This document shows positions 8,596 through 23,287 of a stretch of DNA of 64,000 nucleotides, in pieces. Position 1 is the stretch's first letter; each line of letters begins with the position of its first letter. The stretch spans positions 1,055,997-1,119,996 of the forward strand of contig OY969108.1 in NCBI GenBank assembly GCA_963697965.1, written 5' to 3'. The position numbers and the translations under genes are program-made. The notes beneath the pieces are model-generated. The model saw only the letters and a program-made list of their open reading frames with translations. It was not told the DNA's origin and did no database searches. The stretch is from an uncultured delta proteobacterium. GTDB lineage: Bacteria; Desulfobacterota; Desulfobaccia; Desulfobaccales; 0-14-0-80-60-11.

Positions 8596-9925
8596 CCTGG
8601 GCCTGGGCCAACTTTTGCTCCAGTAGCTGCACTTCCTGGGCCAGGCGTTTATTGGTCTTGCGTTCCCGCTCCAGGGTTTGCAAGGCGTGCACCACGGTGG
8701 CGTGGCTCCTTTGAAAGAGGAGCCCCAACTCCGCCATCGTCTTCTCCGAATAGAGGCGGGCGAAATAATACCCTAGCTGCCGGGCCCGCACCAGCCGCTT
8801 CTGGCGGGAACGCCCCAAGAGTTCCACCAGGCTCACCCCATAATAGTCGCAGACAATCTTTTGGATCTCCGGGATGCTCAGGCGGCTGGACACCGCCTGC
8901 AAGTCCTGGAGGACCTCCCGGGCCATGGACGGGTTGAAGCTCTGGTTGAGCAAGGCCGACCGGGCCAGCAGGCAGTCCAGGGCGCTCTCCAGGCGGCGGA
9001 CGTCGCCGCTGACATATTCCGCCAGGTATTCCAGGATCTTCACCGAGACTTGCACCCCCCGGCTCTCGGCCTTTTTGGCCAGGATATTCACCCGGGTGGG
9101 GAAGTCCGGAGGGCCGATGGGGGTAATGACCCCGCCGGTGAGCCGGGAGCGGAGTTCCTGGGAGAGTTGGCTGATCTCCCCAGGAAGATAACAACTGGTG
9201 AAGACCAGCCTTTTGCGGTGGCTCAGGAGGGTGTCCAGGGTGTAGCACACTTCCGCCTGAATCTTCTCTTTGCCGCTTAAAAACTGGACCTCTTCCAGGA
9301 GCAAAATGTCGCATTCGCGGCGGAAGCGCTCCTTGAAATCGGCCATCTGCCCGCTTTTCAAGGCCCTCACCATTTGGTTGGCGAAATTCTCCGCGGTGAG
9401 ATACATTACCCTGCCCGCACCGGCCGTCTGGCTGATGAAGTTGCCCATGGCCTGGGATAGATGGCTCTTGCCCAGACCGGGGTTGGAGGTGATGAACAAG
9501 AGATGGTTATAAAAGGTGTCATCCCTGGCCAGGGCCCGGGAAGCTTGATAGGCCAGGCGGTTGGAGGCCCCGACCACAAATTTATCAAAGGTGAAGGCTT
9601 GGTTAAGACGGCTCCAGGTGGTAGGCGGCGCTAACTGGGGCAAAACCGGATGGGCCGGCCGCGGCAACGTCTGCGGCCGGGCAGGGGCGTTGAGCAATTT
9701 CAAGGACACCCCCGCCGGCGTCTGCCCCAGGTTTGCCAGGGCCTGCCGGATTAGCGGCAGATAATGGCCCTGAACCCATCTCAAGGAAAAGGGATTGGGG
9801 CAGGCCAGCAGCAGTTCGCCTCCGGGACCGCTTTCCACCTGGAGGGGCTCGATCCATAAATGGAAGGTGGAGGAGGGTATCTCGCCCTTGATTACCTCTT
9901 TGACCGCTTCCCAGGTGTTTGTCAT
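8549..9925 (-). CDS. dnaA: chromosomal replication initiator protein DnaA
   Basis: It has Walker A SNPGLGKSHL, an AAA+ core, and a domain IV helix-turn-helix (RQKRLVRARQLGYYFARLYSEKTMAELGLLFQRSHATVVHA). Confidence 0.97.
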   Translation of the reverse strand: MTNTWEAVKEVIKGEIPSSTFHLWIEPLQVESGPGGELLLACPNPFSLRWVQGHYLPLIRQALANLGQTPAGVSLKLLNAPARPQTLPRPAHPVLPQLAPPTTWSRLNQAFTFDKFVVGASNRLAYQASRALARDDTFYNHLLFITSNPGLGKSHLSQAMGNFISQTAGAGRVMYLTAENFANQMVRALKSGQMADFKERFRRECDILLLEEVQFLSGKEKIQAEVCYTLDTLLSHRKRLVFTSCYLPGEISQLSQELRSRLTGGVITPIGPPDFPTRVNILAKKAESRGVQVSVKILEYLAEYVSGDVRRLESALDCLLARSALLNQSFNPSMAREVLQDLQAVSSRLSIPEIQKIVCDYYGVSLVELLGRSRQKRLVRARQLGYYFARLYSEKTMAELGLLFQRSHATVVHALQTLERERKTNKRLAQEVQLLEQKLAQAQVRWGSKPASTLRTDA

Positions 9926-10499
9926 GGTCCCCCGCCGCCGGTGTAAATGCTGAACCGATGCTAACTTTTGGAGCCATCCCAGTCAAAGGGGATGGGACCG
10001 AAATGCACCTTAGCCCGACCACGTTGCCGGCAACCGAGGGGAAGGGTAAAGAGGCAATGGTGGTGCGGGCCTGTCCCACGCCACAAAATATCCTGCGAAA
10101 TCAATATGATTTGGAGCAGGAACCATCGGCCTCAGGGGTTTGTCAGGCTCCCCCGCGGCCCTTTGCGTTTTGAGTCCATCTCGCGTTTGCTACCGTTTCC
10201 GACGATTTTCATAAGATGAAAAGAGAATCAGGTGCAAAATTCGGTATCCCTGCTACACGCATATGAGAAATCCCTTCAAAAAATATTAATTAACAATATC
10301 CATAAGTTATCCAAGCAGCGGCCAGGGGCGGGGGTCATGGAGGAACCGGCTGGGCGGGATGCCTCTCACATCCGGGGTTCGCTGCCAGCCACCAAAGGGC
10401 TGGGGGCCTATGGTCCGCTTTATCTCCGCTTTCCTTGACAAATTCGCCCGCTCGGTTATATCATTGCCTAAATATTTCGAAAATCTTCCGAGGCCGGCC
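9926..10499. other. candidate oriC / dnaA upstream non-coding region
   Basis: About 570 bp upstream of dnaA has no convincing ORF. It contains an AT-rich stretch (10278-10300) and degenerate DnaA-box-like 9-mers ATATCCATA (10296-10304) and TTATCCAAG (10307-10315), plus other TATCC cores. Confidence 0.35.
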
Positions 10500-11069
10500 A
10501 TGATCAATTATCCCGCTTACCGCAAGTTCATCACCCTGCGCAACGGCAAACGGATGATGTTTCGTTTCCTCAACCAGGAGGATCGCCAGGGCTTGCTCCA
10601 GTTGTTTCAGGGTGCTCCCGAAGAGGATGTCCGGTATCTCAAGCAGAATGTCAAAGATCCCAAGGTGGTCAACTACTGGATAGATAACATCAATTACCAA
10701 AAGGTCTTACCCCTGCTGGCGGTGGACCTGGAAACCAATCGGATTGCGGCGGACGCCACCCTGCACCGGGGTAAACACTCCTCCAAGCACATCGGGGAGA
10801 TCCGGATTTTTGTGTCCCGCAGCTACCGCAACCTGGGACTGGGCTCCCTGATGCTGGAGGAGCTGATCGAACTGGCCTTTAGGGAAAATCTCCAGTGGCT
10901 GAGGGCGGAGATCATCGCCGACTTCAAAAAGGTGATCAAGGGCTTCAGAACCCATGGATTTGAACATAAGGCGGTGCTGGACGACTATTTTATCCGCATG
11001 GATGGGGTGACCCACGACGTGGTGTTGCTGATGCGCCCGGTCATGAAAATTGAGGAAGCGGAATTTTAA
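10500..11069 (+). CDS. GNAT-family N-acetyltransferase
   Basis: The acetyl-CoA binding segment IRIFVSRSYRNLGLGSLMLEELIELA matches (R/Q)xxGxG. The ATG at 10500 is chosen over the longer ORF. Confidence 0.8.
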   Translation: MINYPAYRKFITLRNGKRMMFRFLNQEDRQGLLQLFQGAPEEDVRYLKQNVKDPKVVNYWIDNINYQKVLPLLAVDLETNRIAADATLHRGKHSSKHIGEIRIFVSRSYRNLGLGSLMLEELIELAFRENLQWLRAEIIADFKKVIKGFRTHGFEHKAVLDDYFIRMDGVTHDVVLLMRPVMKIEEAEF

Positions 11070-11098
11070 CGGCGGCACCATGGGTTCGCGGTAAGACC

Positions 11099-11125
11099 GG
11101 GGCGGGTATTAAACCCGCCCCTTTT
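11099..11125 (+). terminator. rho-independent terminator after the GNAT gene
   Basis: GGGGCGGGT-ATTAA-ACCCGCCCC forms a 9-bp GC stem followed by TTTT. Confidence 0.7.
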
Positions 11126-11176
11126 CGTCCAGGGCCTCCCTGGAGCGGTTGGGTCTTCGATTAGGGAGAGAAAGCC

Positions 11177-12350
11177 ATGGGGCGGGTAATAACCGGTCTG
11201 GAAAGCTTCCTTAAAGACCCGCCTGCCTGGACGGCCCGGAGCCGGTTGGGGCTGCTCAGCCACCCGGCGGCGGTAGCCGCCGATCTGACCGCCGCCCGGG
11301 AACTCCTGGCAGCCCGCTTTCCCGGACAACTTAAGGTGCTGTTCAGTCCGCAGCACGGCCTGTGGGGGGAGAAGCAAGACAATATGATCTCCTCCGCCGA
11401 CTTTGTGGACCCCCTCCTGAAGCTGCCGGTGATAAGTCTTTATGGTCCCCGGATAGCCCCCCCCGCCGAGGCCCTGGCGGAGGTGGATGCCGTCCTGGTG
11501 GACCTGCAGGACGTGGGCGCCCGGGTGTACACCTTTGCCGCCACCCTGGCCAAGGTGATGGAGGCTGCGGCTCATCTGGGCAAAAAGGTGGCGGTCCTGG
11601 ACCGCCCCAACCCCATCGGCGGCGCCGCGGTGGAGGGTAATATCCTGCGGCCGGAATGGGCCTCTCTGGTGGGGCCTTATCCTCTGCCCATGCGCCATGG
11701 CCTTACCCTGGGGGAACTGGCCCGCTACTACCAGGTCACCCAAAAGATCGACTGCGACCTGGAGGTGATCCCCCTGGCCGGTTGGCGGCGGCGAGACTAT
11801 TTCGACGCCAGCGGCCTGCCCTGGGTATTGCCTTCCCCTAATCTGCCGACCCTGGAAGGAGCCCTGGTCTATCCGGGGCAGGTCCTCCTGGAAGGCACCA
11901 ATCTCTCGGAGGGGCGGGGCACCACCAAACCCTTCGAACTCTGCGGGGCGCCGTTCCTGGAGCCGGCGCGGCTGCAGGCCCTGTTGCCGAAACTGCCGGG
12001 AGTGATCCTGCGAGAGGCCTGCTTTGAGCCCACCTTTCAAAAGTGGAGCGGCGAGAATGTGCTGCGGCTTCCAACTGCACGTCATCGACCGGGGGAGTTT
12101 CAAGCCCTATTTCACCACCCTGGCCCTGTTGGCGGCGATCCGGGAGATTTACCCGGAGCAATTCGCCTGGCGCCAGCCGCCCTATGAATACGAGACCTCA
12201 AGGCTGCCCATCGACCTGCTCACCGGTGACGCCGCCATCCGCCTGGGGCTGGAGCGGGGCTTGAGCGCCGCGGAACTGGAAGATTCCTGGCAGGGAGATC
12301 TGGCCGGATTCCTAAAGACGCGGCGGGAGTTCCTGTTGTATCCGGAATGA
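11177..12350 (+). pseudogene. DUF1343 / NamZ-like exo-beta-N-acetylmuramidase interrupted by a +1 frameshift near 12060
   Basis: Frame 2 reads ...CFEPTFQKWSGENV and then nonsense. Frame 0 continues CCGFQLHVIDRGSFKPYFTTLALLAAIREIYPEQFAWRQPPYEYE..., the conserved DUF1343 C-terminus. Confidence 0.85.
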
Positions 12351-12406
12351 AAAGAATTTGGTGGGGGGGCCTCCGTGCCCGCCATTCCTACCTCTCAGGC
12401 AAAGAT

Positions 12407-12427
12407 AGTGCGCACTGCGCACTCTAC
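12407..12427 (-). repeat. REP-like element (GTAG head plus palindrome)
   Basis: The minus strand reads GTAGAGTGCGCAGTGCGCACT. AGTGCGCA-C-TGCGCACT is a perfect palindrome. Confidence 0.5.
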
Positions 12428-12445
12428 GCTTAATGCACCAGGGAA

Positions 12446-12465
12446 TAGGGCGGCCTGTGGCCGCC
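12446..12465 (+). repeat. REP-like element (TAGGG head plus GGCGGCC-TGT-GGCCGCC palindrome)
   Basis: The same 20-mer core AGGGCGGCCTGTGGCCGCCG recurs inverted near 18283-18304. Confidence 0.5.
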
Positions 12466-12642
12466 GGCCGTCAAAAAACCGGCTTCTTAAAATTTTTAGG
12501 TTTTTCGGCCCATCAATGCCCGATTTAACCAACTGGCCCTTGACTCCAACCAAGTAAGGCCATATCTACCAGGGTAAAGATGATACGGACTAGTTCGATA
12601 ACGTGAGATAGTCCTTGAACGATTAGGTTAGGGGGTTGGGCT

Positions 12643-13806
12643 ATGGCTTCCCCCGTTTCAGTTGGCGCCAAGCTGGCGATGGCCGTAGCGGATTTTCCGC
12701 AACTCCTGGCAGCCTTGGACCGCCTGGGCTACCAAATGGTGGGGCCTACTCTGCGGGATGGCCAGTTGCTTTACGGTGACCTGGTCGGGGTGGCTGACCT
12801 GCCCGTGGGTTGGACCGACGCGCAGGAACCCGGGGTTTTCAGCCTGCAACCCCGGGACGATCAGGCCCTCTTCGGCTACGGGGTCGGCCAGCAGTCCTGG
12901 AAGCAGTTCCTGTTTCCGTCCCACCACCTGCTCTGGCGCGCCGAACGCCACGGCGAAGGTTTTCAGATTATCCCGCCGGCTGAGAACGTCCCCCGCTACG
13001 CCTTCATCGGAGTCCGCGCCTGCGACCTTAAAGCCATGGCGGTCCAGAACCGGGTCTTTCTTGAAGGCCCTTACGTTGACCCGGTTTATCGGGCCCGCCT
13101 GGAGCAGACCTTCATCCTGGCGGTCAACTGCGGCGGCCGGAGTTGCGGCACCGGTTTCTGCGTCTCCATGGGCAGCGGCCCCCGGGCCACTTCCGGCTTC
13201 GATCTGGCGCTCACCGAGGTTTTAGAGGAAGGTGAACATTACTTCCTGGTGGAAGTGGGAACCGGGCGGGGCGCCGGCGTTCTCCGGTCAGTTTCCCAGC
13301 GGCCGGCCGCAGCCGCGGAAATCGGGGCTGCCGACCGCGTAATGGCGGCTATGACAGCAAGTCTGGGCCGCCAGCTGGAGACCCAGGGCCTCAAGGAACT
13401 CCTCTATCGCAATTACGAACACCCCCGCTGGGACGAAGTCACGGCCCGCTGCCTCAACTGCGGCAACTGCACCTGGGTCTGTCCCACCTGCTTCTGCCAC
13501 ACCGTCGAAGATGTCACCGACTTGACCGGCACCGTGGCTGCAAGATGGCGCCGTCAGGACGTCTGTTTCACCGTGGATTATTCCTACATTCATGGCGGCA
13601 GCATCCGCTCCTCGCCCCGGTCGCGTTACCGCCAGTGGCTGACCCACAAACTGGCTACCTGGCATGACCAGTTCGGCTGCTCCGGCTGCGTCGGCTGCGG
13701 CCGTTGTCTAACCTGGTGCCCGGTGGGCATCGACCTCACCGAGGAAGTCCGGGCCATTCGGGATAATGAAGTCCCTCGCAAGGAGACCGAGCATGGAGAC
13801 CATTGA
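12643..13806 (+). CDS. 4Fe-4S cluster subunit of group-3b-type NiFe hydrogenase (sulfhydrogenase beta / AsrA-like)
   Basis: Ferredoxin-type motifs [16 protein letters not shown] and [15 protein letters not shown] are present. It is the first gene of the hydrogenase operon. Confidence 0.8.
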
Positions 13807-14251
13807 GCCCATTCTGACGGCCCACCCCTTTTTCCGGGGGCTGGACCCGATCCACCTCAAGGACTTGGCCGCCTGCGCCTCCAAGGTCAACTACGCGGCG
13901 GGGGAGTTCCTCTACCGGGCCGAACAGGAGGCCACCTCCTTTTTCCTGATTCTCCAGGGCCGGGTCTCCTTGGAAATCTTCAGCGCCCGGCGGGGACCCT
14001 TGACTCTCAATACCCTGGAGGGGGGTGACGTTTTGGGCTGGCTCTGGTTCGAGGAGAAGCCCTATTACTGGTTCCTGGATGCCAGGGCCATGGACCTGAC
14101 CCGAGCCCTCAGTCTTAAGGTGGATTGCATTCGCAACAAGTGCGAATCGAACCACGATTTGGGCTTCGAAATCATGAAGCGCTACGCCCATTCTTTGGCG
14201 ATAGGCTTCCGGGCAATTAGTCTGCAGCTCGCTGATATGTTTCAGGCATAA
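13793..14251 (+). CDS. stand-alone cyclic-nucleotide-binding domain protein
   Basis: ATG 13793 follows AAGGAGA and overlaps the upstream stop by 14 nt. [52 protein letters not shown]...GDVLGW is a typical cNMP/Crp beta-barrel. No HTH or other output domain is present. Confidence 0.8.
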
Positions 14252-14331
14252 CTTAAGGGCGGGCGTCTTGCGGGGAAGTGGTTTGGGGTGTGAGAGACTG
14301 GCCAAGGCCCCGGCGGCGAAAGGGTAAACAG

Positions 14332-15192
14332 ATGACCCCAAAACCTGGGGAAATGAGCTTAGATAACCCTGCCCCCATGCTCCCGGAGATCTTCCAGGTC
14401 AAACGGGTGCAACGGGAAACTGCGGATACCTTCACCCTGGAGATGACCCGATCCGGAGGCAGCGCCGATTTTGCCTTTGTGCCAGGGCAGTTCAACATGC
14501 TTTATGCCTTCAGGGTGGGGGAGGTGCCCATCTCCATCAGCGGCGACCCGGCCCACCCCGGCATCCTGGTGCATACCCTCAGGAACGTCGGTAACGTCAC
14601 CCGGGCTATTTGTAAATCCCGCCCCGGCGCCCAATTGGGTGTGAGGGGCCCCTTTGGAGCGTCCTGGCCGGTGGCCGCGGCCGCAGGCAACGACGTAATT
14701 ATCGTGGCCGGGGGCTTAGGATTGGCACCATTGCGGCCCGCCCTATATCATATCCTCTCGCATCGCCGGGACTACGGCAATATCGAGCTGATTTACGGAG
14801 CCCGCACTTCTGCGGACCTGCTCTACCGCCGGGAGTTGGAGCGCTGGCGGGGTCGCTTCGACGTCAGGGTGCATGTCTCAGTGGACACCGCCGCCGCTGA
14901 CTGGAAGGGGAGCGTCGGAGTGGTGACCACCGTCATCCCCCGGGCCCGCTTCGACTCGGAAAACACCACCGCCCTGGTATGCGGACCCCAGTTGATGATG
15001 CGCTACACCCTCATGGAACTTCTGGGCCGGGGCCTGGCTCCCGCGCAAATCTTCGTCTCCATGGAACGCCACATGAAATGCGGCCTGGGCCTGTGCGGGC
15101 ACTGCCAGTGGGGGCCCTTCTTCGTCTGCAAGGACGGGCCGGTTTTTCGCTACGATAAGGTCCTGGACTGGTTCGAGCGGCGGGAGGTCTGA
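14332..15192 (+). CDS. FAD/NAD(P)-binding plus 2Fe-2S oxidoreductase subunit (sulfhydrogenase gamma / AsrB-like)
   Basis: It has a ferredoxin-reductase-type fold ([19 protein letters not shown]) and the C-terminal cluster motif [23 protein letters not shown]. Confidence 0.85.
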
Positions 15193-15195
15193 CTC

Positions 15196-15975
15196 ATGGC
15201 CTTGAAAAAAAAGCCCCGGCTTTCGGTCTGGAAATTCGCCTCCTGCGACGGCTGCCAGCTCTCCCTGCTGGACTGCGAAGATGAGCTGCTGGCCGTCACC
15301 GGAGAGCTGGATTTGGCCTATTTTCCGGAGGCCTCCCGGGCCATGGCCAAAGGCCCCTACGACCTGACCCTGGTGGAAGGCTCCATCACCACCCACCACG
15401 ACGCCGCCCTTATCCAAAAAGTGCGCCGAGCCTCCAAATACTTAGTGGCAATCGGCACCTGCGCCTGCTCCGGCGGCATCCAGGCCCTGCGCAACTTCAA
15501 GGATGTCAATGATTTTGTCAGGGCGGTCTACGCCCATCCGGAATACATCCAGGCTCTCGAGCAGTCCACGCCGCTTTCGGCCCATGTCAAGGTGGATTAT
15601 CAACTCAACGGCTGTCCCCTTAACAAACGCCAGCTCCTGGAGCTGATCAGCGCTTATCTGACGGGCCGCACCCCATTGGTCCAGCCCCACAGCGTCTGTC
15701 TGCAATGCAAGGCTCGGGGCAATATCTGCGTCATGGTCACGGGCACTCCCTGCTTGGGGCCGGTAACCCACGGGGGCTGCGGGGCCCTCTGTCCCACCTA
15801 CTACCGGGGCTGCTACGGCTGCTATGGCCCTAAGGAGACGCCCAACACCGCCTCCCTGGCCGCCTGGTTCAGTCAGCGTTTTGGGATCTCCGAAGCAGGA
15901 TTGGTGCAGGCATTTCGTAATTTCTACGCCAACGCCCCGGAGTTCCGCCGGGAGAGCGAAGCCCATGAAAAGTAG
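15196..15975 (+). CDS. NiFe hydrogenase small subunit, group 3b delta type (NuoB/20-kDa fold)
   Basis: The motifs [20 protein letters not shown] and further Cys clusters fit the small subunit. It lies directly upstream of, and overlapping, the large subunit gene. Confidence 0.85.
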
Positions 15976-17254
15976 AACCATCAAGGTCGATATGCTGGCC
16001 CGGGTGGAGGGTGAAGGTGGCCTCTACCTCCGGATCAAAGGCGGCGCCGTGGCCGAAGTCAAGCTGAAGATCTTCGAGGCGCCCCGGTTATTCGAGGCTT
16101 TCTTGAGAGGCCGGCAGTTCCACGAAGCCCCGGATATCACCGCCCGCATCTGCGGCATCTGCCCGGTGGCCTACCAGATGAGCGCGGTGCACGCCATGGA
16201 GGACGCTCTGGGAGTGAAGGTCACCGGCCCCTTGAGGGACCTGCGCCGCCTCCTTTATTGCGGTGAGTGGATCGAGTCCCACGCCCTCCACATCTTCCTG
16301 CTCCACGCTCCGGATTTCCTGGGCTACCAGGACGCCATCAGCCTGGCCCAGGACCACCCGGAGGTGGTCAAAATGGGCCTCCGGCTCAAAAAGATCGGCA
16401 ACGAGGTGGTCACCCTGGTGGGGGGCCGGGAGATCCATCCCATCAACGTCCGGGTGGGGGGCTTCTACCGCGTGCCCACCAAACCGGAACTGGCCCCGCT
16501 GGCGGAGGAACTCAAGTGGGCCCGGGACGCGGCCCTGAAGACGGTGTGCTGGGTGGCGGCTCTCCCCATGCCGGAGTTTGAGCAGGATTACGAATTCGTC
16601 TCCCTGCGCCCTGCCCAGGAATACCCCTTCAACGAAGGACGGCTGGCCTCCAACCAGGGCCTCGATATTGCGGTTCAGGACTACGAGGCCCACTTTGCCG
16701 AGGAGCAGGTCCCTTATTCCAATGCCCTGCACTCGCGGCGCCAGGGCCGCGGTCCCTATTTTGTCGGCCCCCTGGCCCGCTACCATCTGAATTACGACCG
16801 CCTCTCGCCCCTGGCCCAGGAAGCCGCGCAGGAGGCCGGATTGAGCCGGGAGTGCCGCAACCCCTTCCAGAGCATCATCGTGCGGGCGGTGGAAACCCTG
16901 TACGCGGTGGATGAGGCTCTCAGGATCATCGCGGCCTACGAACGGCCCGAGCAACCGGCAATTAAAGCGGAGCCCCGCTCCGGGGTCGGCTGCGCCGCCA
17001 CCGAGGCGCCCCGGGGCCTGCTTTACCACCGCTATCGCCTGGACGAGTCCGGGGCCATCCTGGAGGCCAAGATCGTGCCGCCCACCTCCCAAAACCTGAA
17101 GATCATCGAACAGGACCTCTGGCGGTTCGTGGAAAAGCGCCTCGATTTACCTGATGACCAACTCACCTGGCAGTGCGAACAGTTGGTGCGCAACTACGAC
17201 CCTTGCATCTCCTGCGCCACCCACTTTTTGAAAATCCGGCTGGAGCGGCAGTAG
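15965..17254 (+). CDS. NiFe hydrogenase large (catalytic) subunit, group 3b type
   Basis: It has the N-terminal [13 protein letters not shown] (RxCGxC) and C-terminal DPCISCATH (DPCxxCxxH) Ni-Fe ligands, followed by a 9-aa tail removable by the protease. Confidence 0.92.
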
Positions 17255-17263
17255 AGGACCGCG

Positions 17264-17893
17264 GTGGCTTCTCCCCAGAATTTTCGACTGCAGATCATCG
17301 GCGTCGGCCAGGAATGGCGGGGCGACGACGCGGCCGGACTACTGGTGGCGCGACTTTTGAAACCGACCCAGACCCGTGGGGGCGGAATTGGCGGTCCAGC
17401 CCCGGGAGGGCGCCCACCCGGGAGCGTCCCCACGGCGAATGCTGCTTCTTCGACGCCAAATCGGCCCCAGGTGACAGTTTTGGAAACCTCCGGTGCGATA
17501 AGCGATTTGCTGGCTGCCTGGGATGGGGCCGACGCCGTTATTCTGGCCAACGCCGTCCGGGGCGGCGGGCCGCCCGGCAAGATTTACCGGTTCCCGGTGC
17601 ATGAGGCCGCCTTGCCGGTAGATCTGTTTCCGGCCGCCTCCACCCACGCCTGGGGGATCGGCCAGGCCGTGGCCCTGGGGCAGGCGCTCCGGCAATTGCC
17701 GCCTTATCTGGTGGTCTATGGCATCGAGGGCCGGGACTTTGGCCCCGGACAGACAATTTCTGCGGCGGTGGCCGAGGCCATTCCGGCGGCGGCCCGGCTG
17801 ATATTGCAGGAAATCCAAGAGGTTCTGGGGGAGGGGAGCAAAGCCTGCCCTTTGCTCGGGCGGCCAGGGACGGCCGCCCCACCCAATTTCTAA
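17264..17893 (+). CDS. hydrogenase maturation endopeptidase (HyaD/HycI family) with a Gly/Pro-rich insertion
   Basis: It starts at a GTG. The motifs IIGVGQEWRGDDAAG and ...AVILANAV...GIG fit the protease family. An insert of about 35 aa, QTRGGGIGGPAPGGRPPGSVPTANAASSTPNRPQ, separates them. Confidence 0.75.
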   Translation: MASPQNFRLQIIGVGQEWRGDDAAGLLVARLLKPTQTRGGGIGGPAPGGRPPGSVPTANAASSTPNRPQVTVLETSGAISDLLAAWDGADAVILANAVRGGGPPGKIYRFPVHEAALPVDLFPAASTHAWGIGQAVALGQALRQLPPYLVVYGIEGRDFGPGQTISAAVAEAIPAAARLILQEIQEVLGEGSKACPLLGRPGTAAPPNF

Positions 17894-18135
17894 TGCACCA
17901 GGGCCAGGGCGCTTCTGAGGGCGGCCTTGGGGGGCACGATTTCGGGTTCTCCAGCCAGGCCCCGCCTGGCCTTTTGCAGCCAGTCGTAGATGGTTTGCCG
18001 GGCCGCAGGAATCTCTACCCGGTTGGGCGGCGAAAGACTCGCCAGGATTGCTTTGATGACCTGCAAGGCTGCGTCGTTTTGCCGCCGGTCCACCATATCA
18101 AATGCCTTCTGAATTTCGCTTTTCATATCGGTCAT
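17890..18135 (-). CDS. hypothetical small protein (81 aa)
   Basis: A GAGGAG SD lies 6 nt upstream of ATG 18135. The amino-acid composition is balanced and no domain was recognised. Confidence 0.55.
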   Translation of the reverse strand: MTDMKSEIQKAFDMVDRRQNDAALQVIKAILASLSPPNRVEIPAARQTIYDWLQKARRGLAGEPEIVPPKAALRSALALVH

Positions 18136-18193: not shown

Positions 18194-18404
18194 AAGGAAT
18201 TGGTGGGCAGTGCCCACCCTACATTTTTTCTTGGTAGCCGTTTCAATAATTTTCCAGCCCTGGACACGAGACCCCGATGATCGGCGGCCACAGGCCGCCC
18301 TCTAAAATCCTATCTCTCTGCTTATAGGGCGGGCTGTGCCATCGCCTTAAGCGAAAATATTTGATCTCTGGGCGTGTAGGGTGGGCATTGCCCACCAATT
18401 CCTT
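18194..18404. repeat. MITE/BIME-like element with 30-bp terminal inverted repeats enclosing further REP-like units
   Basis: AAGGAATTGGTGGGCAGTGCCCACCCTACA (18194-18223) is the reverse complement of 18375-18404 with one mismatch. Each arm contains a GTAGGGTGGGCA-N-TGCCCACC hairpin. The interior has two GGCGG-type palindromes. The right end touches the radA stop codon. Confidence 0.7.
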
Positions 18405-19771
18405 CACTTGGGAAACAGGCTGCGGATGGCCGCGGCCAGGGTTTCCACTCCCAGGAGTTCCAGCCCGGGGTAGTCCCCCAGGCGCTCTTTTTGGCGCAGG
18501 GCCAGGAGGGCGCGGCGGAACCCCAGCTTATGCCCTTCCTTGAGGCGCACTTCCGGGGCGCTCACCGCCCGGATCTCCCCGGTGAGGCCCACTTCTCCGA
18601 AGATCAGGGTGTCCGCGGGCAGCGCCCGCTCCAGAAAGGAGGAGGCCACGGCCAGGGAGATCCCCAGGTCCGCGGCCGGTTCGGTGAGGCGGACCCCGCC
18701 GGCCACGTTGACAAAGAGATCCTGGCCGCTCAGGCCCAGTCCCACCCGCTTTTCCAGGATGGCCACCAGCAGCGACACCCTCCCCGGGTCCACTCCCATG
18801 CTTTGGCGGCGGGGCAGGGCCAGGGAGGAGGGGGACACCAGTGCCTGGACCTCCACCAGGATGGGGCGGGAGCCCTCAAGGCTGGGGACCACCGCGGCGC
18901 CGGGGACCTCCAGGGACCGCTCCGCCATGAAAAGGCCCGAGGGGTTGTCCACCTCCAGGAGGCCGGCCTCCTGCATCTCGAAGACCCCCAGTTCCTGGGT
19001 GGGCCCGAAGCGGTTCTTCACGGTGCGCAGCAGCCGGAAGGAGTGGCTGCGGTCCCCTTCCAGGTAGAGGACCGTGTCCACCAGGTGTTCCAGGGTCATG
19101 GGGCCGGCGATGGCGCCTTCCTTGGTGACATGGCCGATGAGAAAGGTGGCGACCCCGGTGAGTTTGGCCTGTTGCACCAGCCGAAAAGCTGTCTCTCTCA
19201 CCTGGTTCAGGGAGCCGGGGGCCGCGGGAATAGTGGCTGTGTACATGGTCTGGATGGAATCGAGGGCCAGGAAGGCGGGCCGGACCTCTTCCACTATCTT
19301 GAGGATGTTTTCCAGGCAGGTCTCGGTGGCCACCAGCAGCTCGCCGGAGGTGAGGCCCAGGCGATTGGCCCGGAGTTTGAGTTGGGCTTCGGACTCTTCC
19401 CCGGAAATGTAAAGGCCGACCAGTCCTCCCCGGCTGAGCCGGTCCAGAACCTGGAGGATGAGGGTCGATTTGCCGATCCCCGGGTCGCCGCCCAGCAGCA
19501 CCACGGAACCCTGGATCACCGCGCCTCCCAGGGTGCGGTCGAACTCCTGGATGCCGGAGATCCGGCGCACCTCCGGGGCCGCAACCAGGCTAAGCAGGGG
19601 CAGGGGCTGGCCGCGCCGGGGAGGCAGTTGCGCCAGGCCGGGGGCCACGGGGGCTATTTCCTCTTCGGCCATGGAGCTCCAGGCGCCGCACTCGGGGCAG
19701 CGCCCCAGCCATTTGGCCGCCTGGTAGCCGCACTGCTGGCAGACAAACACCGGTCTTCCGGCCCGGGACAT
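18404..19771 (-). CDS. radA: DNA repair protein RadA/Sms
   Basis: It has an N-terminal zinc ribbon CQQCGYQAAKWLGRCPECGAW, Walker A GDPGIGKST, KNRFG, and a Lon-like C-domain. Confidence 0.96.
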   Translation of the reverse strand: MSRAGRPVFVCQQCGYQAAKWLGRCPECGAWSSMAEEEIAPVAPGLAQLPPRRGQPLPLLSLVAAPEVRRISGIQEFDRTLGGAVIQGSVVLLGGDPGIGKSTLILQVLDRLSRGGLVGLYISGEESEAQLKLRANRLGLTSGELLVATETCLENILKIVEEVRPAFLALDSIQTMYTATIPAAPGSLNQVRETAFRLVQQAKLTGVATFLIGHVTKEGAIAGPMTLEHLVDTVLYLEGDRSHSFRLLRTVKNRFGPTQELGVFEMQEAGLLEVDNPSGLFMAERSLEVPGAAVVPSLEGSRPILVEVQALVSPSSLALPRRQSMGVDPGRVSLLVAILEKRVGLGLSGQDLFVNVAGGVRLTEPAADLGISLAVASSFLERALPADTLIFGEVGLTGEIRAVSAPEVRLKEGHKLGFRRALLALRQKERLGDYPGLELLGVETLAAAIRSLFPK

Positions 19772-20035
19772 GGAGGCGAGAATCCTTGGAGAGCTAGATT
19801 GGTGATGCCCAACAAAAAACCTTGGTTGATCTTACTTGAACTGCGGCGCAAAAGACAATGATAAAACTTGGACTCGGCCAAGCTACCCTGTTTCTGTTGG
19901 CTTTTTATATTTGCTTAGCAAGGCGGTATTATAGCCACCAGGCGTCGTTTTTATTTTGGGTGACAGTAAGTTTTGGCTGGGATTTTCCAATTAACTTTAG
20001 CAGACCCACATCGATTCAATAACTTTGCTTACTTA

Positions 20036-20461
20036 TTATTCCAAGTCACCTAATCCATGTTCATCAAGTGCTCTACTAAGATCATCTATATCCTTTGTAG
20101 TGACGTTATATTTAATTTTAATTAACAGTTTTCCTAATTCTTTGATCAACGATTGCAGAGAACCATTAAGATCAAAGCCAGTATCTATAAATTTATGAAT
20201 TCTTTCCCTTAACTTTTTTACTTTTGGTAATATGATTGACGCATCATCCGAAAGAAGTACATTTGCTTCCATTATAATGTTATGTTTATAACGACTTACT
20301 ATATTCTCTGCGATTTTAACCCATTTTACGTCATATTCTCTTTCGATAACTGAATGAAGAAGATTTAGAGCTTCTTCTAAGGTATTAACGTTTCTATCTT
20401 TGTCATAGCTTGATAGCAAGCGCCTTGCGTTGATTAATTCTTCTGGTTCTGAAGCCTTCAT
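20036..20461 (-). CDS. hypothetical protein, ORFan B (141 aa, predicted all-helical)
   Basis: The ORF is clean in AT-rich DNA, where random ORFs are short. It starts 12 nt after the upstream gene stop. No motif was recognised. Confidence 0.75.
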   Translation of the reverse strand: MKASEPEELINARRLLSSYDKDRNVNTLEEALNLLHSVIEREYDVKWVKIAENIVSRYKHNIIMEANVLLSDDASIILPKVKKLRERIHKFIDTGFDLNGSLQSLIKELGKLLIKIKYNVTTKDIDDLSRALDEHGLGDLE

Positions 20462-20473
20462 CTGGACACCCCC

Positions 20474-21196
20474 TTATTTAACCTTGTTTAACATATTCAA
20501 CATTGTCTTTGGAATCTTTGCCTTTGAGATCTTTCTTGGATTAAGGGGCCTCCCTTCTTCGACAACCTTCTCAAGTTTAGGTATGGCATCATCTACAATG
20601 TGACTCGTTGCGTAATATACATATTCTGTTATAGGGTCATCTTTGCCCAGGAGTGCCTTAATATCAGCGCAAATTTCTTCGATCTTTTCACCAAAATCCA
20701 ATAGTTTGTTTAATGCCAGTTGATAATTGGGCATTCTTTTTTGTTCATATTTTTTTATAAAGTGAGCATAATCGATAATAATAGTTTCCATAATTTTATC
20801 CCTTTTAATTTTAAAACTTAATGAAAAGTTATTTAGTATCCTGATGGCTCCAAGGCTTATTACATATGTTTTTCGAGCTTTAAACTTTTCTCGCGAAGTT
20901 ATCAGCTTTTGGAAAATGGTGTGTTGACCCGACCATTCATCCTTGTCCTCGATGAGGTTATCCATCCAATGTTCGATAGCCAAGTCAATGACCTCTTTAA
21001 TTTTGACCTCGCCGTGGTTTGCAAGCCATTCAAGGGATTTGATGGATTCTTCGCTCAGTTTGAAGGTTGTGCGCTCTGATTTTTTATTAGAGAGATCAAA
21101 TTTATAATCCTTTCCTTTATATAGCCCCAAAGGGATTGATAATTCCTTTATGCTTCCTGATGAACTCTTTGGTTTTTCGCGGTTTTCGTTTTTCAC
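20474..21196 (-). CDS. hypothetical protein, ORFan A (240 aa) with two ribbon-helix-helix-like segments
   Basis: GTG 21196 has a GAGG SD 8 nt upstream. The segments RTTFKLSEESIKSLEWLANHGEVKIKEVIDLAIEHWM and RKTYVISLGAIRILNNFSLSFKIKRDKIMETIIIDYA each fit a strand-helix-helix pattern. This is pattern inference, not a database hit. Confidence 0.75.
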   Translation of the reverse strand: MKNENREKPKSSSGSIKELSIPLGLYKGKDYKFDLSNKKSERTTFKLSEESIKSLEWLANHGEVKIKEVIDLAIEHWMDNLIEDKDEWSGQHTIFQKLITSREKFKARKTYVISLGAIRILNNFSLSFKIKRDKIMETIIIDYAHFIKKYEQKRMPNYQLALNKLLDFGEKIEEICADIKALLGKDDPITEYVYYATSHIVDDAIPKLEKVVEEGRPLNPRKISKAKIPKTMLNMLNKVK

Positions 21197-21225
21197 AGAT
21201 TATGCCTCAAATATTTTGGTTACCA

Positions 21226-21256
21226 TAAATAGAATGATTACTAATGATATTGTCAA
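21226..21256 (-). promoter_or_regulatory. candidate promoter of the islet operon (TTGACA-19 nt-TATTTA)
   Basis: On the minus strand TTGACA lies at 21256-21251 and TATTTA at 21231-21226. The spacer is long at 19 nt. Confidence 0.3.
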
Positions 21257-21405
21257 GAATAAAAAAGCATCAAAAATGCAAAATATTCAAAAAACCATAG
21301 CAAATTGATAATAATTATAAAAAAATTTTGGGGGCAAAGCCCGCCCGAGGCAGGCGGTCAGGGTGGAGGGGGATTAACCGCCCCGGGCGGGGCGGTCCAC
21401 CATTT

Positions 21406-21573
21406 TCAAGCTTTGGCCTCCCGGGGGCGCACCCGCAGGTCCAGGCGTTCCGAGCCCTCGCCGGGGCCTGCCTGAGTGCCGGGAGGGACGCTGGCGGCCA
21501 GGTCCTCGCCCGAGATGAGGTTCAAAGTGCGCCGCACCTGCTCTTCCATGAAATACTCCAAAGATCTAGCCAT
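21406..21573 (-). CDS. possible small protein (55 aa), uncertain
   Basis: The ORF was found by hand and is below the track cutoff. It reads MARSLEYFMEEQVRRTLNLISGEDLAASVPPGTQAGPGEGSERLDLRVRPREAKA. It is high-GC and lies immediately right of the islet. No SD is obvious. Confidence 0.25.
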   Translation of the reverse strand: MARSLEYFMEEQVRRTLNLISGEDLAASVPPGTQAGPGEGSERLDLRVRPREAKA

Positions 21574-21818: not shown

Positions 21819-23287
21819 ATGTCCGAGATGACCGTCAATGCCCTGCGCCAAGAGCTGGTGGCGGGAGCCGGCAGGCTGGCAGGACGGCGTTCTTTGCGAG
21901 TGTTGCGGGAGCTGGCGGCGGCCCGGAAGGCCAAGGTTTATTTGGTGGGGGGCTCAACGCGGGAGTTGGCCCTGGGGCGGACCGCTGCGGACCTGGATCT
22001 GGCGGTCTCGAGGCAAACCCTGGACCTGGCCCGGGAACTGGCCGGCGCTCTGGAAGGCACCTTTGTGCTCCTGGACGAAGGGGAGCGCACCGCCCGAGTC
22101 GTCTGGCAGGGAGAGATCCTGGACCTGGCCGAGTTCAGGGCCCCCGGACTGGAAGGGGATCTGAGGGGCCGGGATTTCACCATCAATGCGGTGGCCCTGG
22201 ACCTGGACGCCATCCTGGGTTTGGCTCCTCTCGCGGTCCTCGATCCCCTGGGAGGTCTGGAGGATTTGTCCCGGGGGTTGATCCGGATGGTGGCGGCGCA
22301 GAATCTGGCTGCAGATCCGTTGCGGCTGCTGCGGGCTTACCGGTTTGCCGCCACCCACGGTCTGGAGGCGACGCCGGATACCGAGGCCGCCATTGCCGGG
22401 CTGGCCCGGGAATTCTCCCGGGTAGCCGGCGAGCGGGTCCACCAGGAGTTGTTTCTCCTACTGGGAGCACCCCGGGCCGCCCCCGTTCTGGCCCGGATGG
22501 ATCGAGTTGGCCTCCTCACCCGGATCCTGCCGGAGCTGGAAGAGATGAAAGGGGTGGAGCAGGATGGTTATCACCACCTCGACGTGTTCCAGCACTCCCT
22601 GGCTGCGGTGTTGCATCTGGAGGAGGTGCTGGCGGAGCCGCGGCGGTACTTTGGGGAAATGGCTGCGGCAGTGGCCGCGGCGGGGGCGCCGCCCTGGCCG
22701 GCCCTGGTCAAACTGGCGGCCCTGTTCCACGACATTGGTAAACCGAGGGTTCGGGAGCGGCGCCGGGATCCGGACCGCTATACCTTTTATTTTCATGAGA
22801 AGCTGGGTATAGAGATCTTTGCCGGGGTAGTCCAGAGATTGCGTCTGAGCGCCGCTGAAGCCAAGGTGGTGAACACCCTTATCCGGCTGCATATGCGTCC
22901 TTTTTTGCTGCTGTCCGCCTTTCGGCAGCGGGAGCTGAGTTTCCGAGCCCTGGGACGGATGGTGCGGGCAGCGCGCCCGAGTTGCCAGGCCTCTTCACCC
23001 TGGCCATGGCCGACAGCCTGGCAGGTCAGGGGCCCACGAAACCTGCGGATTCCGAGGCGGTATTGGCCGAACTGGCGGATGAGGCCCTGCGTTTCCTCAA
23101 GGAGAAGCTGGAGCCCCAGGAAACCCTGCCCCGGCTGCTCAGCGGCGGCGACCTGATCCGGGAATTTCACCTGGAACCCGGCCCTCGCTTTCGAGACCTG
23201 TTGACCGCGGTGCAGGAGGCCCAGTGGGAAGGGATGGTGCGCACCCGGGAAGAGGCCCTCGGCCTGGTGCGCCGCTTGCTGGGGTAA
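21819..23287 (+). pseudogene. cca: CCA-adding enzyme / poly(A) polymerase family tRNA nucleotidyltransferase with HD domain, interrupted by a frameshift near 22975
   Basis: It has the PolyA_pol head GGSTRELALGRTAADLDLAV and RDFTINA, and an HD domain (HHLDVFQHS...LFHDIGKP). Frame 0 becomes nonsense after ...RALGRMVRAA, and frame 2 continues PELPGLFTLAMADSLAGQGP...LLSGGDLIREFHLEPGPRF. Confidence 0.85.

Follow-up and report, generated by a model that had tools for sequence, protein, structure and literature searches.

An AT-rich two-gene insert beside radA in an uncultured Desulfobaccales genome: a candidate toxin–antitoxin-like cassette with an exchanged second gene

This study focused on a small AT-rich islet in the genome of an uncultured delta proteobacterium (Desulfobacterota, Desulfobaccales; GenBank assembly GCA_963697965.1). 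It lies within a stretch of 64,000 nucleotides (nt) of contig OY969108.1, which was analysed as a whole and is referred to below as the window; its numbering is used throughout. The islet adjoins the DNA repair gene radA and carries two minus-strand genes, named here A (upstream) and B (downstream), which are separated by 12 nt and each preceded by its own Shine–Dalgarno (SD) sequence (Table 1). An original prediction, made from the letters of the window alone, had delimited both open reading frames (ORFs) and the gap between them exactly, and had proposed that they form a compact toxin–antitoxin (TA), abortive-infection or other defence module. The islet is a real and recent insert, horizontally acquired and confined to a very narrow lineage. 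There is about an even chance that it represents a type II TA-like cassette in which the second gene has been swapped, and the evidence bearing on this and on competing explanations is set out below.

The islet, its junctions and its flanks

By composition the islet is the strongest anomaly of the window, as had been judged by eye in the original prediction. In windows of 200 nt, the G+C fraction (GC) is 0.63–0.73 in radA and on the side of the htrA-like relic and cca, 0.27–0.43 from about 19800 to 21330, and again 0.655 at 21300–21499. Against a window-wide mean of 0.611 (standard deviation 0.067, 300-nt windows) the minimum is 0.29 (z = −4.8), the deepest trough in the 64 kb. Other low-GC stretches measure 300–600 bp; inspection of the two lowest showed both to be intergenic spacers.

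The occupancy of the site was surveyed in related genomes with RadA as the anchor and one genome per GTDB species. About 20 Desulfobaccales-type metagenome-assembled genomes (MAGs) were recovered, with radA products 71–98% identical in amino acids (aa) and with cca and radA kept as divergent neighbours. Genes A and B were found by tblastn in none of the relatives L015–L034, where the cca/radA synteny is retained. The pair was found only in the window and in L001–L004 and L014, whose radA and cca are 98.0–98.1% and 98.9–99.0% identical to those of the window at the nucleotide level in the case of radA, and the nearest genomes without it (L015, L017 and L016) have radA genes 95.3–96.6% identical in nucleotides. 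When filled sites (the window and its sister, L002) were aligned with empty ones (L015, L016 and L017), host homology stopped at 21340 and restarted at 19891, placing the junctions at about 21339/21340 and 19891/19892. The islet is an acquired insert because some 20 relatives have empty sites, the junctions are precise, and its GC is 0.34 as against 0.61. The suggested check of close relatives for an unoccupied radA–cca spacer was therefore borne out, and the genes, being limited to so narrow a lineage, are not ancestral low-GC genes of the whole clade, a result that had been named as part of one that would refute the idea.

Table 1. Features of the islet and its immediate surroundings, in coordinates of the window
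Feature	Position	Strand	Remarks
radA (DNA repair protein RadA/Sms)	18404–19771	−	Pfam zinc-ribbon, KaiC/AAA_25 and ChlI-like domains
Inserted AT-rich cassette	19892–21339	.	1448 bp; GC 0.34 versus 0.61 for the window; limits ±10 bp
Non-coding 3′ tail of cassette	19892–20035	−	Conserved in the sister genome; any function conjectural
Gene B	20036–20461	−	141 aa; acidic, isoelectric point (pI) 5.85; predicted six-helix, all-alpha
Gene A	20474–21196	−	240 aa; GTG start; basic, pI 9.3; putative autorepressor/antitoxin
Cassette promoter and candidate operator region	21197–21339	−	Putative promoter and operator functions
Relic of trypsin/PDZ (HtrA-like) gene	21406–21573	−	55 aa; in frame; GC-rich host DNA
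cca-type nucleotidyltransferase/HD gene	21819–23287	+	Pfam PolyA_pol, PolyA_pol_RNAbd and HD domains

None of the hallmarks of a genomic island (an integrase or transposase, a tRNA or other att site, flanking direct repeats) were found at the islet. The ORF list of the window contains no integrase or transposase near it, no tRNA, tmRNA or Rfam family was detected in the whole window, and no terminal inverted or direct repeats occur at the junctions, where the repeat search gave only short, low-complexity matches. With no mobility gene, the insert consists of cargo only, set in a conserved housekeeping neighbourhood, much as the original prediction had described it. The islet DNA is AT-rich and contains many short repeats. 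The 9-bp repeat CAAAAAACC is indeed present at 19813–19821 and 21288–21296 and had been put forward as a possible mark of the insertion ends. It was rejected both in that role and as a target-site duplication: measured from the limits set by the empty sites, one copy falls some 70 bp beyond the insert and the other some 45 bp within it, and the outer copy is not kept in the sister filled site, so the repeat is a chance match. A weak terminator-like hairpin at 19865–19884 lies at the 3′ junction of the cassette, where it might serve to end transcription.

On one side the islet is bordered by radA, as predicted, and the product of this gene is 98.9% identical in amino acids to that of the sister genome. 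On the other side it does not abut cca, since an HtrA-like relic intervenes next to the promoter end of the islet. This relic derives from a 346-aa gene by an in-frame deletion of 299 codons; only its residues 1–34 and a C-terminal ERLDLxVRPREAKA matched by tblastn, and the deletion joins ...GPGEGS to ERLDL... with just a GGA(A) microhomology at the junction. The HtrA-like gene is intact in L002–L004 and in the empty-site relatives L015–L018 and L033. Beyond it, cca is split into two frames (21819–22985 in frame 3 and 22940–23284 in frame 2, as two tblastn high-scoring segment pairs) by the loss of 1 nt from a run of C near 22975, reading GCGCG-CCCGAG where L002 has GCGCGCCCCGAG; either the frameshift is real or a homopolymer was misread in sequencing or assembly. 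Other genes around the locus include those for a hydrogenase and an RpiR-like protein, and no defence genes flank the islet.

The spacer between cca and radA is a variable spot in its own right. The HtrA-like gene occurs only in the closer relatives, and in distant genomes the two genes lie 200–700 bp apart, while L016 carries at the same place (about 1790–2180) an extra non-coding insertion of about 340 bp with GC-rich hairpins. In L001 (ena:ERZ25039473:contig_34817, 126 kb), the DNA beyond gene B (9200–16700) is unlike that of the other sister contigs, its radA product shows no more than 61% identity (over 375 aa), and many of its genes are broken up, which suggests a frameshift-ridden or chimeric assembly; L001 was left out of the comparisons. 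Just downstream of radA, an 81-aa ORF (17890–18135, minus strand; GC 0.50–0.58) has a counterpart of equal length in the same place in L002–L004 and L014, and carries no annotation.

The two genes, their promoter and their relatives

The promoter region upstream of gene A contains, as a −35 box (21251–21256, minus strand), the TTGACA element noted in the original prediction, together with a −10 box TCTATT (21228–21233). The motif GTAATCA is found in the 17-nt spacer between them. The −35 box is preceded at a distance of 10 nt by an ATGC motif, and the SD sequence GAGG (21205–21208, minus strand) stands 8 nt ahead of the GTG start, again as predicted. The layout TTGACA-N17-TAtatT is common to all six lineages read, namely that of the window and five others upstream of A homologues. 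Of the six upstream regions, four have GTAATCA in the spacer and four have ATGC 9–10 nt ahead of the −35 box. A consensus promoter scan of the window did not list the cassette promoter, and its −10 box TCTATT is a poor one. The sister L002 and two other lineages of the family have TATATT in its place, so that the window differs by an A to C change at position 2. As this is the most important base of a −10 box, its loss would be a down-mutation, and the window copy may be more weakly expressed.

The original prediction had regarded both proteins as ORFans, whereas each proved to have a small family. For gene A, a search of 5.8 billion proteins found eight relatives, all unnamed. One, in the sister MAGs, is 92% identical, the other seven are 51–56% identical, and the family alignment is strongly conserved over residues 28–150. 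Gene A itself matches nothing in Pfam, NCBIfam or PADLOC; two PHROG regulator families touch residues 34–93 weakly (E ~0.02), and a profile search against PDB sequences returned only an engineered protein. Its predicted layout comprises a disordered N-terminus of 35 residues, two tandem beta-alpha-alpha units (residues 40–82 and 106 to about 150), an acidic hairpin at about 150–214, and a variable basic tail. The two units have the form of ribbon–helix–helix (RHH) elements, of which the first is invariant between the window and its sister.

An AlphaFold2 (AF2) model of gene A, built from a nine-sequence alignment and confident in two of five models, has a mean predicted local distance difference test score (pLDDT) of 72, with 80–91 in the RHH units. 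DSSP assigned E40–48/H49–62/H66–82 and E106–114/H115–128/H132–183, followed by a return helix at 188–214 and a short C-terminal helix. In a Foldseek search of the PDB the top matches were chains of the F-plasmid relaxosome (probability 0.89–0.99, TM-score on target 0.56–0.63, E 0.1–0.6), which a sequence look-up identified as TraY. The F TraY protein is a monomer that holds the whole fold of an RHH dimer in one polypeptide (PMC12117103). On the strength of the model and of the match to TraY, gene A is best read as a predicted single-chain tandem RHH DNA-binding protein with a helical hairpin, in agreement with the DNA-binding appearance ascribed to it from the sequence.

The relatives of gene A have a consistent partner. 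At every distant locus with readable downstream DNA (L005–L013, representing homologues P0003 and P0005–P0007, or four of the seven distant ones, with P0002, P0004 and P0008 left out), an 84-aa gene lies 0–45 nt downstream of the A homologue. These loci occur in three genomic settings: after a ribonucleotide reductase (RNR) gene, after a DUF218 gene, and beside a DDE transposase. The 84-aa proteins match the Pfam family DUF4258 (PF14076) over the full model with 27.8–33.5 bits, the gathering cutoff being 25, and they are very basic (pI ~10), whereas the hairpin of A is acidic. Each A-DUF4258 cassette is itself an AT-rich islet of 1.2–1.4 kb with a GC of 0.37–0.40, compared with 0.58–0.61 for its genome. 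Since the promoter layout is shared and AT-rich islets recur in GC-rich genomes, the promoter, A and the gene that follows it form a unit that moves as a whole. No relaxase, type IV secretion system (T4SS), integrase or other element genes were found at the A-family loci.

In a survey of BECR-fold (RelE/ParE-superfamily) proteins, DUF4258 is listed among the type II TA toxins, in antitoxin–toxin gene order (Gerdes 2025, PMC11980606), and a preprint places it in a Colicin-like BECR branch that overlaps Ntox49 (bioRxiv 10.64898/2026.08.28.747851). The partners of DUF4258 in earlier surveys were HicB- or MqsA/YgiT-type antitoxins. Neither the window nor L002 contains a DUF4258 gene or a relic of one, and a hidden Markov model (HMM) of the B family found no B-like ORF at the A-DUF4258 loci. 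Gene B thus fills the slot that DUF4258 holds in all the other readable A-family cassettes, and the swap is seen only in the lineage of the window.

In L007–L010 the A-DUF4258 cassette is followed, at a distance of about 1.5 kb, by a BrnT/BrnA pair (at about 10500–11020 in L007). The DNA between the two gives different ORF calls (64, 96, 227 and 270 aa) among contigs with an identical A, a sign that the stretch from the RNR gene to the FabH gene of these contigs may be a small hot spot for accessory genes.

Gene B also belongs to a small family. An exhaustive HMMER search, covering 1.84 billion representatives, recovered proteins of 116–164 aa that are 22–45% identical to B. Most of the positions that are invariant in the family are hydrophobic (the full set is P6, E8, L9, A12, L16, L28, L32, L35, I39, A51, N53, S71 and F91), and B-family genes elsewhere are, like B, AT-rich relative to their flanks. 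As judged by these relatives, gene B is a real gene of the accessory genome. Its family showed no relation to that of gene A (hhalign), and it is no hidden DUF4258, having no PF14076 match, a predicted all-alpha rather than an alpha/beta BECR fold, and a blastp E-value of 0.77 to the DUF4258 partners. The AF2 model of gene B (pLDDT 67) is of moderate quality and predates the discovery of its divergent relatives. Taken together, the recommended profile and structure searches placed neither protein in a curated family: A matches the fold of TraY only, and B has no match. Searches of Pfam, NCBIfam, PADLOC and PHROGs that took in the other members of both families likewise yielded no hits above noise.

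Two leads on the family of gene B were dropped. A weak match to DUF5617 in four of nine members (best E = 0.006) led to a family that is itself uncharacterised, and HEPN Rx4-6H and Fic/Doc motifs in gene B are, by eye, not conserved in the family alignment. The genes found beside B relatives specify proteins of 112 and 159 aa without known identity (L097–L099), proteins with signal peptides (L100 and L103), an IS1595 fragment (L101) and a lipoprotein (L105). At L096 (285–5426) the B-family gene lies 147 nt downstream of the gene for a DEAD/Hrq1-WHD/MZB helicase of 813 aa, in which an exonuclease/RNase H-like region is weakly recognisable. Beyond the B-family gene come antitoxin genes of the MazE and Phd types, along with small partners; no other B-family context resembles a conflict-gene cluster.

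The window and its sister differ unevenly along the locus. Synonymous divergence (dS) is 0.052 in radA and 0.049 in gene A but 0.144 in gene B, and the ratio of non-synonymous to synonymous divergence (dN/dS) is 0.14, 0.72 and 0.86, respectively. In a map of 50-column bins, mismatches amount to about 2% in radA and 3.7% in A, and step up at about 20475–20500, the A/B boundary, to 10–18% per bin (about 12% on average). The raised level extends over the whole of B and the 3′ tail and on across the host spacer to the start of radA (about 19780–20500). Relative to the neutral rate in the flanks, B and the DNA as far as radA show a two- to threefold higher divergence. Such fast divergence suggests either allelic replacement by recombination or a diversifying pressure. 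Because the excess in dS is threefold and extends into host spacer DNA, import of a divergent allele by homologous recombination fits better than drift alone. A recombined allele of this kind would imply that there are other lineages in which this site is occupied by the cassette.

Interpretation and alternatives

How the islet might work can be put as a series of steps. A bicistronic cassette would have been inserted between the htrA-like gene and radA in a recent ancestor of the window genome and its nearest sisters, with a conserved promoter of the sigma70 type driving A and then B. A, presumably a single-chain RHH protein like TraY, would bind and repress its own promoter/operator, and its C-terminal part would bind and neutralise the product of the downstream gene. 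The effector slot would have been swapped from DUF4258, a predicted RNase, to the unrelated, helical and acidic protein B. In the weakest of these steps, B would be the effector of this variant, growth-inhibitory or conflict-related, and held in check by A.

In our judgement, the chances are evenly balanced that the islet represents a type II TA-like cassette, acquired horizontally and with its second gene swapped. The operon has the form usual for type II TA: the two genes are co-oriented with a 12-nt gap, both have SD sequences, and the promoter is conserved in the family. A has the placement and the build of an antitoxin that controls its own operon, and may thus repress its own synthesis and neutralise its partner. 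The TA-like reading gains real support from the relatives of A that stand directly upstream of predicted toxins of the BECR type, and to this extent the TA module proposed from the sequence has found backing. The further proposal that the small downstream protein is the toxin was not established, as B is acidic and has no toxin features, and its relatives have no consistent antitoxin-like partner. Of the idea of an undescribed system only one part holds: both protein families may fairly be called undescribed, but the architecture is of a known kind and does not make a new system.

Several observations weigh against a TA-like cassette, and most of them concern gene B. A recognised toxin family in the downstream position is found only with the relatives of A, in the form of DUF4258, and not in gene B, which has no obvious catalytic set or motif and nothing else that is toxin-like. 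It has no profile match in Pfam, NCBIfam, PADLOC, PHROGs or PDB sequences, and its model gave only generic helical matches with E > 0.6 in Foldseek searches of the PDB and BFVD. The neighbours of B-family genes are heterogeneous, none resembles A, and the lack of a consistent neutraliser beside them argues against an intrinsic toxicity of B. The acidic hairpin of A has stayed unchanged although the partner went from very basic to acidic, so that a simple charge-complementary neutralisation of B does not fit. Gene A raises doubts as well. Its RHH assignment is itself a prediction from the nine-sequence AF2 model, with two of five models confident, and from Foldseek at E ~0.1; its two RHH units align in register without significance (hhalign E = 0.044, probability 1%), and when the RHH segments were isolated no RHH model of Pfam matched them. 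Only eight A homologues are known, with the downstream gene read for four of the seven distant ones, and the toxin role of DUF4258 is itself a predicted one (PMC11980606). Finally, values of dN/dS near 1 for A and B, and the weakened −10 box of the window, would also be expected of a decaying module.

The last point leads to the most serious of the alternatives, which is possible but to which we give less than an even chance: the module may be degenerating or orphaned. An ancestral pair of A and DUF4258 would have lost its toxin, a non-toxic accessory gene B would have come to stand in its place, and A would persist as an orphan regulator, with both genes drifting almost neutrally. The dN/dS of A and B compared with that of radA is consistent with this, as is the loss of the A at position 2 of the −10 box, which sets the window apart from its sister and from other family members. 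So too are the acidic nature of B, its want of a catalytic signature, and the absence of antitoxin-like partners beside B-family genes elsewhere, which suggests that B is not intrinsically toxic. Other observations speak against decay of this kind. Both ORFs are intact in all independent assemblies (the window, L001–L004 and L014), and the frame of B has been preserved through 49 substitutions, although only 6.8% of random placements of these keep it open, a borderline value. RHH unit 1 of A is fully conserved, the 12-nt coupling and the strong SD before B have been kept, and the threefold higher dS of B points to recombination rather than to simple drift.

TA modules are often defensive, and a role of the cassette in anti-phage defence or abortive infection was part of what had been foreseen: A would sense infection or act as a repressor, and B would be released or activated when infection occurs. 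Being compact, acquired and fast-evolving, with a swapped effector, the cassette has some of the looks of such a system; one B relative lies beside the DEAD/Hrq1-MZB helicase and the MazE/Phd pairs, and BrnT/BrnA pairs occur near A-DUF4258 cassettes. RelE/ParE toxins have also been framed as defence toxins (Gerdes 2025, PMC11980606). The locus itself speaks against it, and we regard this explanation as unlikely. A and B of the window have no match in PADLOC-DB v2, and 18 family members gave one isolated weak match per family, at the level of chance (JetA, E = 0.003; DndC, E = 0.011). The site is a housekeeping one (radA, cca, hydrogenase, RpiR-like) with neither flanking defence genes nor the setting of a defence island, and the proposed defence module found no support. 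No relatives of A or B were found in the viral contigs or the phage collection scanned, and among the matches listed in a scan of metagenome contigs there was only a contig already known.

Two further explanations are effectively excluded. In the first, the islet would be what is left of an element that was conjugative or mobilisable, and A would serve the relaxosome as an accessory protein like TraY, next to a degenerate oriT. This would account for the best structural match of A being F-plasmid TraY and for AT-rich DNA with many short repeats, but is very improbable given that no relaxase, T4SS, integrase or element genes occur at the family loci, that 72,556 plasmids hold no homologue of A or B, that the insert measures only 1.45 kb with clean junctions, and that the RHH fold is common to many repressors and antitoxins. 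Least probable of all, spurious ORFs in non-coding AT-rich DNA, where short ORFs abound and where neither product has a curated family match, are hard to reconcile with homologues at about 50–56% (A) and 22–45% (B) identity that conserve lengths and alignment columns, with conserved start codons, SD sequences and promoter, and with RHH units that are modelled with confidence.

The reading as a TA-like cassette with a swapped second gene can be carried further, to a conjecture that we offer as a doubtful one, with perhaps a one-in-several prospect of being right. A would belong to an undescribed class of single-chain tandem-RHH antitoxins or regulators that act as a portable platform for unrelated effectors, and B would be the first of a new family of all-helical, non-enzymatic-looking toxins or conflict effectors that diversifies rapidly by allelic exchange at a fixed chromosomal site. 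The TA-like reading, if right, would add a new antitoxin architecture, an RHH 'dimer' in one chain joined to a helical-hairpin neutralisation domain, and would provide the first candidate cognate antitoxin of such a kind for the uncharacterised DUF4258/Ntox49 toxins. It would also offer a natural effector swap that could show how antitoxin platforms change partners. The locus presents a clean, datable cassette, from promoter to terminator, in a housekeeping spacer and with no mobility gene, and as such bears on how small modules move. Its practical importance is limited, as the MAGs that host the cassette come from uncultured Desulfobaccales, each family has very few members, and there is as yet no link to a phenotype.

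Comparison with known systems

The closest structural counterpart of gene A is TraY of the F plasmid (PDB 9f0x–9f12), in which two beta-alpha-alpha repeats form an RHH pseudo-dimer in one polypeptide, as predicted for A at about residues 40–150. The two differ in that sequence identity is 10–14% and A loci have no relaxosome context, and A extends beyond TraY by a C-terminal helical domain of about 90 residues and a disordered N-terminus of 35 residues. The predicted resemblance is one of fold, not of family or role.

The readable distant cassettes of the A family are like the surveyed DUF4258 modules in having a bona fide DUF4258 gene directly downstream, in antitoxin–toxin order. In the surveyed modules the partners are of the HicB or MqsA/YgiT type, whereas in the A family the partner is a predicted tandem-RHH protein, and the islet in the window has no DUF4258.

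Among the type II TA systems with RHH antitoxins (RelBE, ParDE, KacAT and the CcdAB type), the known antitoxins have about 70–100 aa and dimerise to form the RHH fold, whereas A has 240 aa, with both halves predicted in one chain and a long hairpin added. The phrase 'tandem RHH' was not met in the top-ranked literature on RHH antitoxins. A matches no antitoxin HMM, and B, a putative toxin at most, belongs to no known toxin family. In their organization the two are nonetheless alike: the islet, like these systems, is bicistronic, with the antitoxin position first, a short gap and its own promoter; A, like their antitoxins, is predicted to combine an N-terminal DNA-binding part of the RHH type with a C-terminal part that would bind its partner; and the A family, like type II TA systems in general, is found in small mobile islets, with partners shuffled between antitoxin and toxin families.

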